A program made the position numbers and the translations under genes. From Minisyncoccota bacterium (GTDB taxonomy: Bacteria; Patescibacteriota; Minisyncoccia; Phycocordibacterales; UBA6065), in contig DASWWW010000004.1 of assembly GCA_036400935.1 (NCBI GenBank), forward strand, positions 7,808-71,807: a DNA stretch of 64,000 bases. Reading direction: 5' to 3'. Each line of letters opens with the position of its first letter. The stretch's first letter is position 1. Below the pieces are notes generated by a model. It made no database searches. It saw only the letters and a list, made by a program, of their open reading frames with translations, and was not told where the DNA came from. Below, piece by piece: positions 33,161 to 58,321 of the stretch.

Positions 33161-33588
33161 TGGAAACCGCTGACAACCGAATATCTAGCGCCAGCTAGCA
33201 TGGAGAGCTGAATCTAATTAGACAAACGTGCGAGGCGAGGCGCACGAAGGCCTTGAACTAGATCAAGGTCTGCATGACCGCCACTGGCGCGAAGTCCGCA
33301 TAGAGCAGTAACCTACTTTGTAATATAGCATACATTCTAGATAATTGCAAGTGCAACCGAGGCGCGGCCAGATGCATCAAATCAAAAGGGCCCGCTTGAT
33401 TGAACAAGTGGCCCTATGAAGCAGCCCGAAGGCAGCTTTGCTCTCCGTTATGCTTACCGACCCGTTCGAGATAGCCATCAAGCCCACCTCAAATGGCCGC
33501 ACGAATCGCGTAGAACAGAGACCTAGCCGGAAATTACCACATATCGAAAATAAATCAAACAAAAGCCGCGACCCATGCCGCAGCTTTT

Positions 33589-34602
33589 TTATCTCTTGGA
33601 AATGATAGTCCTCTTGTACACGTCGAGATGCTCCAGGGCGATACCTGTTCCCTTTGCCACGCAGTAGAGGGGGTCTTCGGCGAGGACGGCCTTTACGCCG
33701 GTGCGGCGGAAGACGAGCTCGGGCAAATTGCGGAGCATCGACGAGCCTCCGGTCATGATGATGCCGGCGTCGATGATGTCGGCGGCGAGCTCGGGCGGAG
33801 TCTCCTGGAGCACGTCCTTGATCGCCTTGATCATGTCGCGCAGCTCGCGGCTGATCGCCTTTACGATCTCGTTCGTCTTGACCTCGGTCGAGCGAGGAAG
33901 GCCGGACACGAAGTCACGCCCCTTGATGATGAGGCTGAGCTCCTCCTCCAGTGGCACGGCTGATCCGATCTCGATCTTGATAGTCTCGGCGGTCTTGTCT
34001 CCGATGGCGAGGTTGAAAGTCTTCTTTATATAGTCGGCGATAGCGGCGTCGATGCGATTGCCGGCGCACTTAACCGATGTCGATGCCACGATGCCTCCAA
34101 GAGAGATCACCGCAACGTCGGTCGTGCCTCCGCCGATGTCGACGATCATATGGCCTTTGGCCTCCTGAATAGGAATGCCTGCGCCGATAGCGGCGAGGAT
34201 CGGCTCCTTCACGACGTACGCGCTCTTAGCGCCCGCCTTTACGGCAGCCTCCACCACCGCGCGGCGCTCGGTCGAGGTGATGCCCGCAGGCACGGACACG
34301 AGGACCTCGGGCTTCCAGACGTTCCACTTGCCCAGGGCCTTGTCGATGAAATAGCGGAGCATCGCCTCGGTCACGCGGTAGTCCGCGATCACGCCGTCCT
34401 TCATCGGGCGGTACGCGATGATCGATTCCGGAGTTCGACCGATCATCTGCTTTGCCTCGACGCCTACGGCCAAGATTTTATTGTCCTGCTCGGACACGGC
34501 GACGACCGAAGGCTCGTTCAGGACGATGCCTTTGCCCGGCAAAAACACGAGCGTGTTCGCCGTTCCGAGGTCGATGCCCAATTTTTTCGCGAAAATTGCC
34601 AT
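33589..34602 (-). CDS. MreB-like actin homolog (second paralog)
   Basis: Start at MAIFAKKLGIDLGTANTLVF (34602). DIGGGTTDVAVIS. About 45% identity to the mreB at 27763..28827. Confidence 0.85.
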   Translation of the reverse strand: MAIFAKKLGIDLGTANTLVFLPGKGIVLNEPSVVAVSEQDNKILAVGVEAKQMIGRTPESIIAYRPMKDGVIADYRVTEAMLRYFIDKALGKWNVWKPEVLVSVPAGITSTERRAVVEAAVKAGAKSAYVVKEPILAAIGAGIPIQEAKGHMIVDIGGGTTDVAVISLGGIVASTSVKCAGNRIDAAIADYIKKTFNLAIGDKTAETIKIEIGSAVPLEEELSLIIKGRDFVSGLPRSTEVKTNEIVKAISRELRDMIKAIKDVLQETPPELAADIIDAGIIMTGGSSMLRNLPELVFRRTGVKAVLAEDPLYCVAKGTGIALEHLDVYKRTIISKR

Positions 34603-34723
34603 ACGTGGCCATACTATACGCTTTTTCCTAGCATTTGCGATAGTTGACAAACTCTTCCTTTAAATCTAAAGTCTCAGTCTGCCTGTTCTTCAAAATTTTC
34701 CCTTTCCTCAGTCCAACCAACAT

Positions 34724-35104
34724 ATGAAAGCCAACCTAATCCTCATTGCCCTGCTGCTCGCAAGCGCCGCAGCAAACGTCTACCAGCACGCCCACCTCAA
34801 GACCTACAAGGAGAATGCCGAGCTCATCGCCAGCGCCGAGCTCGTCCGCATCATCTCGGTCGAGCAAAGCGAGTACGCCGGCGACAACGTGCAGGTCAAG
34901 TTCGCATCGATCAACCCGCGCACGGGCGAGGCTCGCAAGGATACGCCCGTCTATACGCAACTCGTGAGCAAGAGCCCCCTTCTCAAGAACGGCGTCACCG
35001 GCCGGCTCGTGGTCAACGGCTTCGACTTCAAGCGCTACAAGCCGTACTTTACTTTCGAGCAGCGGGAGCATACATGGTCGGGCTCTGGTCCGGAAAAGAA
35101 ATAG
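34724..35104 (+). CDS. secreted hypothetical protein
   Basis: Signal peptide MKANLILIALLLASAAANV. A terminator follows. Confidence 0.5.
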   Translation: MKANLILIALLLASAAANVYQHAHLKTYKENAELIASAELVRIISVEQSEYAGDNVQVKFASINPRTGEARKDTPVYTQLVSKSPLLKNGVTGRLVVNGFDFKRYKPYFTFEQREHTWSGSGPEKK

Positions 35105-35222: not shown

Positions 35223-35525
35223 ATGAGAACATCCCAAACGAAAGCATTGCTTGCTCGCAAGCGCCGGCACAGCAGGCCCGACCCATCGATCCTCAGCATG
35301 ACGATGGAGAGCTTCTACGGGCGGTACCTGCAGGACGACCCTCACTTCCGCGCAGACTTCCTCGACGTGGAGCTGGGCGGCACGCCGATTCGCCAACTCA
35401 CCGTGCAGAAATTCACCGCGAATGTCGGGACGGACGAGATCGTAAAGATGAAGTGCGGCATGGGCGCCGGCAGCGTCGCCAAGGTCCGGGCGCGTCTCGG
35501 GAAGTACAATATAGAGTGGAAGTAA
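35223..35525 (+). CDS. hypothetical protein (100 aa)
   Basis: ORF between two terminators. No domain recognised. Confidence 0.4.
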   Translation: MRTSQTKALLARKRRHSRPDPSILSMTMESFYGRYLQDDPHFRADFLDVELGGTPIRQLTVQKFTANVGTDEIVKMKCGMGAGSVAKVRARLGKYNIEWK

Positions 35526-35550
35526 GGAGCGCGCGGCGCTCCTTTTTTAT
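35524..35550 (+). terminator. rho-independent terminator
   Basis: aggagcgc-gcg-gcgctcct followed by tttttatttt. Confidence 0.8.
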
Positions 35551-35637
35551 TTTCACGAACCTTATCCACACCTTCGCTTTTTCATAGCATATATGCTATA
35601 TTAGTTTTCATATCAATAAGCGGCTTTAACACGTCAC

Positions 35638-37203
35638 ATGACAAAAGAGACCAAACCACAGGCGCTCACGGCTATCGGCGGCATGATCGCCCGACTGCGC
35701 GAGGACAGGCGGATGACCCAGGCGGAGCTCGGCGAGAAGATCGGCACCACCCAGTCGGTCATCGCCCGCATCGAGAAGGGCGAGCAGAACCTCTCGACCG
35801 AGACTTTGGCAAAACTGTCCGAGGCCCTCAATCACGAGATCGTCTCCCTCTCCAAGGGCGGGACGGTCAATTTCCGCATCCAGGGCGGCCACAAGCTTTC
35901 CGGAACCATAAGGGTCAGGAGCTCGAAGAACGGCGCCGTCGGCGTCATGTGCGCGGCCCTTCTCAATAAAGGGACGACCGTCATCAAGAACGCCCCAAAG
36001 ATCGAGGAGGTAAACCGCATCGTCGAAGTGCTCGAGTCGATCGGCGTGAAGGTCGCCTGGACCGGCGGAAAAGACGGAAGCAGCGGCACCGACCTCTCCA
36101 TCACCCCGCCCGAGAAGTTCGCCATGAAGGATATCGCCTACGATTCCGCAGCCAAGACCCGCACCATCATCATGATGATCGGCTCCTTGATCCACCGCAT
36201 GAACAAGTTCAGCCTGCCGCAGGCCGGCGGATGCCGCCTTGGCTCGCGAACGGTCCAGCCGTACTTCTACGCGCTCGAGAACCTCGGCGTCTCTATCGAG
36301 GCAAGCTCTAAATACTACGAGGTCTCGCACGAAGGGCTCAAGAAGAACCGCGAGATCGTCATGTACGAGGCTGGCGACATGGTCACAGAGACCGTGCTCA
36401 TGGCCGCAGCCCTCATCCCAGGTACGACGACCATTAAATTCGCGTCGGCGAACTACCAGGTCCAGGACGTCTGCTTCTACCTCGAGCTCCTCGGCGCAAA
36501 GATCGAGGGCATCGGCACCTCGACCATGATCGTCCACGGCATCGACGCCGGAAAGACCGGACTCAAGAAGGACGTCGAGTACACTGTCTCGGAGGACCCT
36601 ATCGAGGCGATGTCCCTTCTCGCCGTCGCCATCGTCACGAAATCCTCGATCACCATCGAGCGCTGCCCTATCGACTTCCTTCAGCTTGAATTGCTCAAGC
36701 TCGAGAAGATGGGATTCAAATACAAGATCACGAGACGCTACAAGGCGGAAAACGGCAAGACAAACCTCGTCGACATCGTCACGGCGCCTTCAAAGCTGAA
36801 GGCCCTCGGCGAGAAGATCCACGCCCTTCCGTATCCGGGCATCAACATGGACAACCTGCCGTTCTTCGCCGTCATCGGCGCCGTAGCCGAAGGCGAGACC
36901 CTGATCCACGATTGGACGTACGAGGAGCGCGCCATCTATTACAAGGAGCTCGACAAGATGCGAGCGGAAACAATCCTCGCCGATCCGCACCGCTTCTATA
37001 TCAAGGGCCCGACAAAATTCAAGGCGACTGAGCTCGTCTGCCCGCCTGCCCTGCGCCCATCGGTAGTGATCATGATCGCTATGCTCGCGGCAGAAGGCAC
37101 ATCGGTCTTGCGCAACGTCTACAATATCAACCGCGGATACGAGGATCTGGCAGCCCGCCTCAACGCCCTCGGCGCCAAGATCGAGGTCTTCAGGGATCTC
37201 TAA
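35638..37203 (+). CDS. murA: UDP-N-acetylglucosamine 1-carboxyvinyltransferase with an N-terminal XRE-type HTH fusion
   Basis: Residues ~10-65 are LTAIGGMIARLREDRRMTQAELGEKIGTTQSVIARIEKGEQNLSTETLAKLSEAL (HTH_XRE). The MurA core follows from FRIQGGHKLSGTIRVRSSKNGAVGVMCAALL, with the catalytic Cys in LPQAGGCRLGSRTVQP. Confidence 0.85.
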   Translation: MTKETKPQALTAIGGMIARLREDRRMTQAELGEKIGTTQSVIARIEKGEQNLSTETLAKLSEALNHEIVSLSKGGTVNFRIQGGHKLSGTIRVRSSKNGAVGVMCAALLNKGTTVIKNAPKIEEVNRIVEVLESIGVKVAWTGGKDGSSGTDLSITPPEKFAMKDIAYDSAAKTRTIIMMIGSLIHRMNKFSLPQAGGCRLGSRTVQPYFYALENLGVSIEASSKYYEVSHEGLKKNREIVMYEAGDMVTETVLMAAALIPGTTTIKFASANYQVQDVCFYLELLGAKIEGIGTSTMIVHGIDAGKTGLKKDVEYTVSEDPIEAMSLLAVAIVTKSSITIERCPIDFLQLELLKLEKMGFKYKITRRYKAENGKTNLVDIVTAPSKLKALGEKIHALPYPGINMDNLPFFAVIGAVAEGETLIHDWTYEERAIYYKELDKMRAETILADPHRFYIKGPTKFKATELVCPPALRPSVVIMIAMLAAEGTSVLRNVYNINRGYEDLAARLNALGAKIEVFRDL

Positions 37204-37298
37204 TCAGAAATCAGACCGTCCACATAGGCCCAAAACAAGCCCTCTCATAGGACTTGTTTTTATTATAAAAATATGCTATAATAATTATTGCAAGTTCA

Positions 37299-37757
37299 TT
37301 GAACGCTATGGATAAAGGAACTGGCCCGTCTTACGGGTGGGCCGCTTCTTTTATCCATATGAAACTGAGAGAACAGAACTACGAGGGCAATGCCCTCAAA
37401 ATCAAAGGCGCCGCAATAACCTATATCGGCACGAAGAATCTCGAAGAGGAGGCAATAGCCGCCCTCGAGAGATTCGTCAATGGCGATTGGGGCACGACGG
37501 CCACAGCGGCGGCGAACGATGGCTACATCGCCAAACAGCAGGACGGCAGAGTCCTGATGGGCCAATACCCGACAACTGAAAACGGCATGAGCATTGTCAT
37601 CAACGCCGTGACGCTGAAGCCGGGCAACGGCGGGAAGATGGAGGTAAGCCAAGCGATAGTGGGCCAATCGTCCCAGATCGCCAAGGCCGAGCTCAATCTC
37701 GCGACGGGTATGACGGCCGCGGCGGCCAGCTCAACCGCAGGTAGCACTGCAGCCTAA
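37299..37757 (+). CDS. hypothetical protein with Ala/Thr-rich tail
   Basis: 152 aa. A terminator follows. Confidence 0.45.
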   Translation: MNAMDKGTGPSYGWAASFIHMKLREQNYEGNALKIKGAAITYIGTKNLEEEAIAALERFVNGDWGTTATAAANDGYIAKQQDGRVLMGQYPTTENGMSIVINAVTLKPGNGGKMEVSQAIVGQSSQIAKAELNLATGMTAAAASSTAGSTAA

Positions 37758-58210: not shown

Positions 58211-58246
58211 AATGAAAAAATCACCCAATTGGGTGATTTTTTCATT
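58211..58246. terminator. perfect 16-bp palindromic bidirectional terminator downstream of tRNA-Asn
   Basis: aatgaaaaaatcaccc-aatt-gggtgattttttcatt. Confidence 0.85.
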
Positions 58247-58321
58247 GGCTCCGCGGCTTGGACTCGAACCAAGGACCCATCCCTTAACAGGGGATCGCTC
58301 TACCAGCTGAGCTACCGCGGA
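58246..58321 (-). tRNA. tRNA-Asn (anticodon GUU), CCA encoded
   Basis: Hand-folded minus sense: acceptor TCCGCGG/CCGCGGA (perfect), D-arm GCTC-AGCTGGTA-GAGC, anticodon stem ATCCC/GGGAT with loop CTGTTAA, T-arm CTTGG-TTCGAGT-CCAAG, discriminator G, CCA. Confidence 0.85.

Follow-up and report, generated by a model that had tools for sequence, protein, structure and literature searches.

The HTH-MurA protein

This report concerns a murA gene in a 64,000-nucleotide (nt) stretch of the genome of a Minisyncoccota bacterium (contig DASWWW010000004.1 of assembly GCA_036400935.1). The whole 64-kb stretch that was analysed is referred to as the window, and coordinates are positions within it. The coding sequence (35638..37203, + strand) is one unbroken open reading frame (ORF) that begins with ATG and encodes 521 amino acids (aa) followed by a stop codon. 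Its product, called HTH-MurA here, joins an N-terminal helix-turn-helix (HTH) domain to the UDP-N-acetylglucosamine (UDP-GlcNAc) enolpyruvyl transferase MurA, and a palindrome over its promoter makes it probable that the protein controls its own gene. A sequence-only reading of the window had proposed such a fusion within one ORF and had described the HTH as lambda-repressor-like, of the XRE family. Both proposals hold. The Pfam model HTH_3 (PF01381) matches aa 17-65 (E 7e-14, 52 bits against a cut-off of 23), and the model EPSP_synthase (PF00275) matches aa 82-505 (E 2e-43).

The XRE/Cro-C1-type HTH domain spans aa ~9-66 (35662..35835, +), as judged from the Pfam match and the helices of an AlphaFold2 model, and contains the recognition helix TTQSVIARIE (aa 37-46). 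It is followed by a short linker, LNHEIVSLSKGGTV, at aa 64-77 (35827..35868, +) and by the MurA body at aa 78-521 (35869..37200, +), which is supported by Pfam, NCBIfam and structure superposition. The AlphaFold2 monomer, computed from a 24-sequence alignment, has a mean predicted local distance difference test (pLDDT) score of 86 and a predicted template modelling (pTM) score of 0.80. As the sequence-only reading expected, the N-terminus folds as an HTH in this model, with helices at aa 9-23, 28-35, 39-46 and 54-63 (pLDDT 83-89). The linker is a coil (aa 64-75, pLDDT ~70) that runs into the first MurA strand. By sequence, the HTH is closest to the HipB, ClgR, HigA and 434 repressor families.

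The closest solved structure to the enzyme body is MurA 5u4h (E 1e-51), in which the catalytic-Cys loop GGCAIGSR aligns with GGCRLGSR of HTH-MurA. This alignment places the catalytic Cys at Cys199 (codon 36232-36234, +), in the motif that had been singled out from the sequence. In Foldseek comparisons the body superposes on solved MurA structures with template modelling (TM) scores of 0.86-0.93, and none of the solved MurA structures matched in this way carries an HTH. The protein passes the cut-off of the NCBIfam MurA subfamily NF006873 (319 bits, cut-off 297). It scores under the cut-offs of the MurA equivalog TIGR01072 (304 bits, cut-off 392.7) and of NF009470 (205 bits, cut-off 552), and it shares no more than ~25-37% of its sequence with canonical MurA.

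In a scan across species representatives, at least 573 species-level genomes proved to encode a relative, and all locus-level comparisons of operator, helix and context were made on the best 80 of these at least 573 loci, with ±4 kb each. Among 75 fusions from three lineages, the residues K22, N23, R91, C115, R120, D305, R331, R371 and R397 (E. coli numbering) are invariant, while the D369 position is Ala in 75/75, a signature of the subfamily. The linker is 13-14 aa long in every one of these fusions, and HTH and enzyme body are conserved to about the same degree. Judged by its residues, HTH-MurA is thus best classed as a divergent but catalytically complete MurA subfamily. The Cys at the fosfomycin target position makes fosfomycin sensitivity likely. 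Neither a second MurA nor a second member of the MurA-type HTH family is encoded within the 64-kb window.

Distribution of the fusion

Both domains occur in one protein in 120/120 best database homologues, which are 70-100% identical and come from many independent assemblies. These homologues belong to metagenome-assembled genomes of Paceibacterota, Parcubacteria and Patescibacteria, and the databases annotate them simply as MurA. The phylogenetic spread, which the sequence-only reading had put forward as a check, turns out to be wide. The HTH is present at 76/80 of the best loci, and full-length fusions among them recur in Paceibacteria, Uhrbacteria, Saccharimonadia (TM7, including Nanosynbacter, e.g. 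L053) and Actinomycetota. The last of these groups was unexpected. It includes the cultured genera Knoellia (L048), Janibacter (L056), Nocardioides (L072), Ornithinimicrobium and Brachybacterium (L073), whose proteins are 53-56% identical to HTH-MurA; the example loci lie among L043-L080. In a library clustered at 50%, fusions were found down to ~32-35% identity, together with close HTH-less relatives. HTH-less orthologues of 444-456 aa also occupy three Paceibacteria loci (L019, L027 and L028).

The recognition helix is near-invariant within each lineage, reading TTQS[VA][IV]ARIE in Paceibacteria and TSQSA[VI][AN]RIE in Saccharimonadia and Actinomycetota. The classic recognition-helix positions are the best-conserved part of the HTH domain. 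The proteins of Actinomycetota and Saccharimonadia form sister groups, 64% identical to each other and ~54% identical to those of Paceibacteria, and some members of the two groups share an identical recognition helix, TSQSAINRIEKG. Saccharibacteria are epibionts that live on Actinomycetota. Because the HTH-MurA proteins of parasite and host are sister groups, their sequences suggest an old horizontal transfer between the two lineages, in either direction.

A predicted operator over the murA promoter

The predicted operator of murA is the 18-mer CATAGCATATATGCTATA at 35583-35600, which contains a 16-bp perfect palindrome at 35584-35599. It falls inside the region (35550-35640) that had been suggested for an electrophoretic mobility shift assay. 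The right arm of the operator overlaps an extended -10 element, TGCTATATT (35594..35602, +). No good -35 element was seen at the murA promoter; extended -10 promoters usually do without one. Among the A/T-rich perfect palindromes of the window, that at 35584-35599 is the longest. The sole longer perfect palindrome is a 20-mer of mixed composition, AATCACCCAATTGGGTGATT (58219-58238), which adjoins a tRNA-Asn gene (58246-58321, -).

How specific is this site to murA? When one mismatch to the consensus is allowed, the operator is the only match in 64 kb. Among orthologous loci it occurs once per ±4-kb locus, and a scan for a regulon found no second operator either in the 64-kb window or in the ±4-kb loci. 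The two arms differ in this respect. The sequence TGCTATAaT also lies upstream of other genes of the window, at 33322 (-), 37274 (+) and 58055 (-), and is a generic promoter motif of this genome. The right arm alone therefore means little, and the murA-specific part is the left operator arm only. Another candidate operator, TATGCTATA, was rejected for a similar reason: its three matches in the window first seemed specific but proved to be the generic extended -10 element.

An 18-bp near-palindrome that fits the skeleton TATnnCATnnATGnnATA is found at all 75 anchored HTH-bearing loci and at the Uhrbacteria locus L038. Thus, the operator is present at 76/76 HTH-bearing loci with readable upstream DNA and at 0/3 loci with an HTH-less murA orthologue; L019, L027 and L028 have no palindrome, and L019 retains the -10 arm only. 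A score that combines palindromy with fit to the skeleton ranges from 22 to 30 at the observed sites, with a median of 27. For 2,702 other stretches of these loci, taken as a null set, the median score is 17 and the 99.9th percentile is 24; 1.2% of the null stretches score at least 22, as all observed sites do. The distance to the recognition-helix codon is also restricted. It is -112 to -179 nt in 74/75 anchored loci, the exception being the weakest site (L023, at -257 nt). In Saccharimonadia and Actinomycetota it is -124 to -146 nt, mostly -127 to -131.

The operator occurs in lineage-specific versions that track the lineage of the HTH. The version of Paceibacteria is TATAGC(A/G)TATATGCTATA, that of Saccharimonadia is TATATCATnnnTGATATA, that of Uhrbacteria is TATACCACATATGGTATA and that of Actinomycetota is TATCTCATATnTGAGATA, the site of the cultured actinomycetes being also given as TATCTCATATGTGAGATA. 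The actinomycetal loci are 67-75% GC, except for an Acidimicrobiia locus (L049) with 60%. An inner CAT..ATG core is kept across all lineages. A residue-to-base recognition code was considered and rejected, since helices of the same sequence go with half-sites that differ.

In every lineage the right arm of the operator meets a -10 element. It leads into TGCTATAAT in Paceibacteria and into TGATATAAT in Saccharimonadia, where an ATG follows ~8-10 nt on. The actinobacterial -10 consensus is TANNNT. A conserved TAc.cT stands at the right arm in Actinomycetota, with an ATG ~7 nt on, and overlaps only the last 2 nt of the palindrome. Because the ATG falls ~7 to 10 nt after the -10 pattern, these sequences suggest that the murA mRNAs of Saccharimonadia and Actinomycetota are leaderless.

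Two further elements lie near the operator. An extra copy of the half-site, TTATATCAT, is found ~17 nt upstream of the main palindrome in L044, L045, L054 and other Saccharimonadia of the Nanosynbacter type, which may point to a third half-site or to an auxiliary operator. In the window, a perfect match to the DnaA-box consensus 9-mer, TTATCCACA, lies at 35562-35570, 21 nt upstream of the operator, and is the sole perfect match in 64 kb. Five close relatives (L001, L002, L003, L006 and L010) also have the box, at -20 to -28 relative to the operator, and more distant loci do not. DnaA may act on the murA promoter through this box, or the box may simply be promoter sequence particular to the clade.

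The same palindrome at other HTH genes

The palindrome is not confined to murA. A metagenome scan for the exact 18-mer TATAGCATATATGCTATA returned at least 120 loci (L081-L200), which were classed by in-frame extension and blastp clustering. Some 8-10 of the 120 loci listed are true HTH-murA fusions. In 29 of them a standalone XRE protein of ~95 aa is encoded immediately downstream (e.g. L081, L088 and L099), and in 20 a Gp49/HigB-like toxin gene (PF05973) comes first and the HTH gene second (e.g. L094, L130 and L154). Altogether, blastp clustering places an HTH-family gene or a toxin-plus-HTH pair next to the palindrome in 81/120 of the listed loci. A 140-aa family with no Pfam match occupies the position of the toxin in some palindrome loci (L111, L120 and L175).

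The standalone proteins resemble the N-terminus of HTH-MurA. Their helix reads GTKQSVISRLE and their C-terminus ALNSHLEIRF, while the corresponding segments of MurA are GTTQSVIARIE and ALNHEIVSLS; that is, the linker of HTH-MurA resembles the C-terminal end of its standalone relatives. The parsimonious reading of these sequences is that an autorepressor cassette of the antitoxin type, consisting of promoter, operator and HTH, became fused to murA.

Gene neighbourhood

A terminator stands on each side of murA. The intrinsic terminator of the upstream gene (35524..35552, +) has a 9-bp GC-rich stem, AAGGAGCGC/GCGCTCCTT (hairpin 35524-35544), followed by a T-run. A terminator-like structure lies 3' of murA (37232..37270, +), in which a hairpin at 37232-37260 with 12-nt arms, 92% complementary, and a 5-nt loop is followed by the T-run TTTTTATTAT. 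The monocistronic layout that had been read from the sequence is thereby retained, and the upstream terminator is predicted to isolate murA as its own transcription unit. A permissive Rfam search of 35400-37500 gave a chance match only.

The mreB gene lies upstream on the opposite strand (33589..34650, -; Pfam MreB_Mbl, E 1e-134). In Paceibacteria-type loci mreB is nearly always the divergent neighbour of murA, and the operator lies between their start codons, which are separated by tens of nt. In the window, as in the closest related locus, L001, mreB and murA are separated by two small ORFs that match no Pfam model. Those of the window are at 34724-35104 (126 aa, with a hydrophobic N-terminus) and 35223-35525 (100 aa), each followed by a terminator-like hairpin. 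The upstream gene is mostly divergent in Saccharimonadia as well, and mreB was not found within the fetched ±4 kb of Saccharimonadia and Actinomycetota loci. At five HTH-bearing loci, the window among them, the upstream gene is co-directional, and 8-9 of the 9 palindromic pairs are kept there. Strand calls in the high-GC actinomycete loci are unreliable because of shadow ORFs.

Downstream of murA, a perfect extended -10 element, TGCTATAAT, is present at 37274-37282. Within the same region (37274-37375) lies a very stable hairpin (37306-37359) with 21-nt arms, a folding energy of -34.4 kcal/mol and a z-score of -5.0 against shuffled sequences. The candidate start codons of the following ORF (37299-37757, without a Pfam match) fall within this hairpin, which contains a terminator-like core (37322-37344) and matches no Rfam family. 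A leader or attenuator is one possible identity, a small RNA another.

HTH-MurA as a probable enzyme and self-repressor

What does the HTH do? HTH-MurA is probably a bifunctional protein, both enzyme and repressor, that acts on its own promoter as a trigger enzyme. In this model, the C-terminal body would be a competent MurA that makes enolpyruvyl-UDP-GlcNAc for peptidoglycan. The antitoxin-like XRE HTH would recognise the 18-bp palindrome, probably as a dimer, and the bound protein would occlude the -10 element and so exclude RNA polymerase. As a result, the amount of MurA protein would feed back negatively on transcription of murA, at the committed step of peptidoglycan synthesis. In most Paceibacteria this operator stands in the short gap between the divergent mreB and murA and may also affect mreB; co-regulation of mreB is plausible there. 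Physical binding, the dimeric stoichiometry and the repressive sign of regulation are inferred from the geometry of the operator and from how XRE repressors and antitoxins work. Autoregulation was one of the ideas offered by the sequence-only reading, and the operator over the gene's own -10 element, which comes and goes with the HTH, supports it. Non-specific tethering to the nucleoid, offered alongside, is not needed to explain the data, and the specific conserved site argues against it.

Four other explanations were weighed. The palindrome might be mere promoter symmetry, in which back-to-back extended -10 boxes (TGCTATA on each strand) form a bidirectional mreB/murA promoter, no repressor is involved and the HTH does something else. 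The generic TGCTATAaT that forms the right arm in Paceibacteria fits this idea, as do an mreB that usually diverges within tens of nt and the mostly divergent upstream gene of Saccharimonadia. However, the HTH-less L027 and L028 have the same divergent mreB and no palindrome, whereas the palindrome is kept at the five HTH-bearing loci with a co-directional upstream gene. Furthermore, -10 boxes do not make up the palindrome of the high-GC Actinomycetota, all lineages share the inner CAT..ATG core, and the same palindrome precedes standalone HTH and toxin-antitoxin genes. A two-by-two comparison of HTH presence with gene orientation led to the rejection of the bidirectional promoter, and we regard this explanation as very unlikely. 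An artefact of assembly or sequencing, namely a frameshift that joins a small upstream HTH gene to murA, was already a concern of the sequence-only reading, and small standalone HTH genes with the same operator do exist elsewhere. But the same in-frame fusion is found in all 120 best homologues and at 76 of the best 80 loci, in four lineages that include isolate genomes, and its linker is of constant length. Such an artefact has next to no probability.

The other two explanations accept the fusion and the site but assign them different roles. In one, a separate small XRE or antitoxin paralogue binds the site and the fused HTH serves protein contacts, for example as a RodZ-like tether to MreB. 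The XRE-type HTH of RodZ contacts MreB instead of DNA, mreB is the conserved neighbour in Paceibacteria, and there are standalone proteins whose helix is nearly that of HTH-MurA and whose genes have the exact operator. A separate binder does not account well for an operator that occurs at 76/76 loci with the fused HTH and at 0/3 without it, for the window having no second HTH of that family, or for recognition-helix positions being the most conserved of the domain. Against a tether to MreB, the HTH and operator persist in Saccharimonadia and Actinomycetota that have no mreB within ±4 kb. In addition, the RodZ-type Pfam model HTH_25 does not match HTH-MurA at E <= 0.01, and no stretch outside the HTH and MurA domains could form a membrane helix; a RodZ-like MreB-binding HTH was rejected on these two grounds. 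We give this explanation little credence. The last explanation is that the protein is primarily a transcription factor with a MurA-like ligand sensor rather than a housekeeping enzyme, and in Actinomycetota perhaps a second, regulatory paralogue for other genes. The score under the MurA equivalog cut-off, the low identity to canonical MurA and the universal change of D369 to Ala point this way, as does an actinomycete gene context unlike that of canonical actinobacterial murA. However, the nine catalytic and binding residues checked, including Cys115, are invariant, the MurA subfamily cut-off is passed, and a single operator is found per locus, at murA itself. HTH-less orthologues hold the same syntenic position beside mreB in small Paceibacteria genomes, and this shared position suggests that the locus is the murA of the Paceibacteria lineage. 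A sensor in place of an enzyme is improbable.

Several points weigh against self-repression by HTH-MurA. Binding and repression are predicted from computational comparison. The operator and the helix co-vary only at the level of lineages, and some Actinomycetota and Saccharimonadia with one and the same helix, TSQSAINRIEKG, have different bases at half-site positions 4-5. No HTH gene was detectable near 39/120 of the listed exact-palindrome loci. Standalone paralogues with almost the same helix and with the same operator exist, and in some genomes it could be they that really bind the site, or they could compete for it. MurA is usually considered a monomer, and a dimer on the palindrome would need an interface from the HTH or the linker; the linker is a coil of moderate confidence in the AlphaFold2 monomer. 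Finally, the case for HTH-MurA as the sole MurA covers the 64-kb window and is weakest for Actinomycetota.

How might a self-repressing HTH-MurA respond to metabolism? One possibility is that DNA binding depends on ligands through the open/closed transition of MurA (UDP-GlcNAc, phosphoenolpyruvate (PEP) or UDP-MurNAc). This is a speculation that we consider rather doubtful, although the strictly fixed, short linker is suggestive. It can be joined with the other observations into a tentative picture of a one-protein homeostat, in which the ligand-driven transition would act through a rigid 13-14-aa linker on dimerisation of the HTH or on its affinity for DNA. Perhaps, then, transcription of murA, and in Paceibacteria of mreB too, would follow precursor pools and not just the amount of protein, but we would not count on it. 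The same picture holds, just as tentatively, that the module was domesticated from a toxin-antitoxin autorepressor cassette and moved between Saccharibacteria and the Actinomycetota that they parasitise.

MurA is the target of fosfomycin and the committed step of peptidoglycan synthesis, and its control is an active topic. If the self-repression of HTH-MurA is real, MurA would be the transcription factor of its own gene, the first case of its type. Regulators are very few in Patescibacteria, and HTH-MurA may show how minimal genomes balance essential pathways. The conserved mreB-operator-murA layout points to a coupling of precursor supply with the elongation machinery, and the operator shared with HTH genes of the toxin-antitoxin type points to a promoter-operator-repressor cassette captured by a housekeeping gene. 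Actinomycetes that are in culture and grow readily (Knoellia, Janibacter, Nocardioides and Brachybacterium) share both architecture and operator, which makes the system experimentally tractable.

Comparison with known systems

Canonical MurA of E. coli and E. cloacae has the same fold and the same nine residues as HTH-MurA, which adds the N-terminal HTH and has Ala at D369. The known control of MurA is post-translational, by proteolysis or by UDP-MurNAc feedback, and does not involve binding of the enzyme to DNA. Literature searches found no description of an HTH-MurA fusion; a Lipocone preprint that came up was rejected because it matched only an author name in the reference list.

BzdR offers a parallel in architecture. 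Its NCBIfam model, NF006015, matches HTH-MurA (E 1e-7), and BzdR likewise consists of an N-terminal XRE HTH, a linker and an enzyme-fold domain, which in BzdR is shikimate-kinase-like. BzdR acts at its own pathway promoter, and its enzyme-like domain is a sensor only. In HTH-MurA, unlike BzdR, every checked catalytic residue is retained.

The HTH itself is related to XRE antitoxins of type II systems. It is homologous to HipB (4z5h, E 8e-4; TIGR03070, E 4e-10), scoring under the antitoxin family cut-offs (39.6 vs 71.65 bits). The consensus of the HipB operator is TATCC-N8-GGATA (PMC3920265), and the HipB and MurA operators share an 18-bp architecture with an outer TAT(C)...(G)ATA. In HipB and HigA, as in HTH-MurA, the operator overlaps the gene's own promoter, and the Gp49/HigB-like-plus-HTH pairs and the ~95-aa standalone relatives use an 18-mer identical to that of murA. 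Unlike these antitoxins, murA has no adjacent toxin gene (no Gp49, HigB or HipA gene lies next to murA in the window) and its HTH is joined covalently to a 445-aa enzyme. A toxin-antitoxin system of the HigBA or HipBA type was rejected because no toxin gene is adjacent and murA is flanked by terminators. A link to zeta/PezT toxins, whose partner PezA is an XRE antitoxin, was also considered; as summarised in PMC3062530, these toxins poison MurA through UNAG-3P. It was rejected because the HTH resembles PezA in a generic way only (E 0.003) and no zeta toxin turned up.

HTH-MurA also resembles trigger enzymes. The concept was set out by Commichau and Stulke in 2008 (cited in PMC5397151), and trigger enzymes with a fused DNA-binding domain include BirA (biotin ligase and repressor), NadR, PutA and the archaeal RbkR (PMC5397151). 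In common with these proteins, HTH-MurA has a metabolic enzyme that appears competent, a DNA-binding domain and a conserved palindrome at a promoter of its own pathway. The DNA-binding domain of RbkR has been lost in some lineages (PMC5397151), as the HTH has in the HTH-MurA family. The target seen for HTH-MurA is its own promoter only, plus possibly that of the divergent mreB. The testable features of a trigger enzyme are all found in its sequence: the enzyme is intact, a DNA-binding domain is fused to it and a predicted operator lies at the promoter of its gene. HTH-MurA would thus join BirA, PutA, NadR and RbkR as one of their kind. It differs from them in its enzyme, which is MurA, the first committed step of peptidoglycan synthesis.

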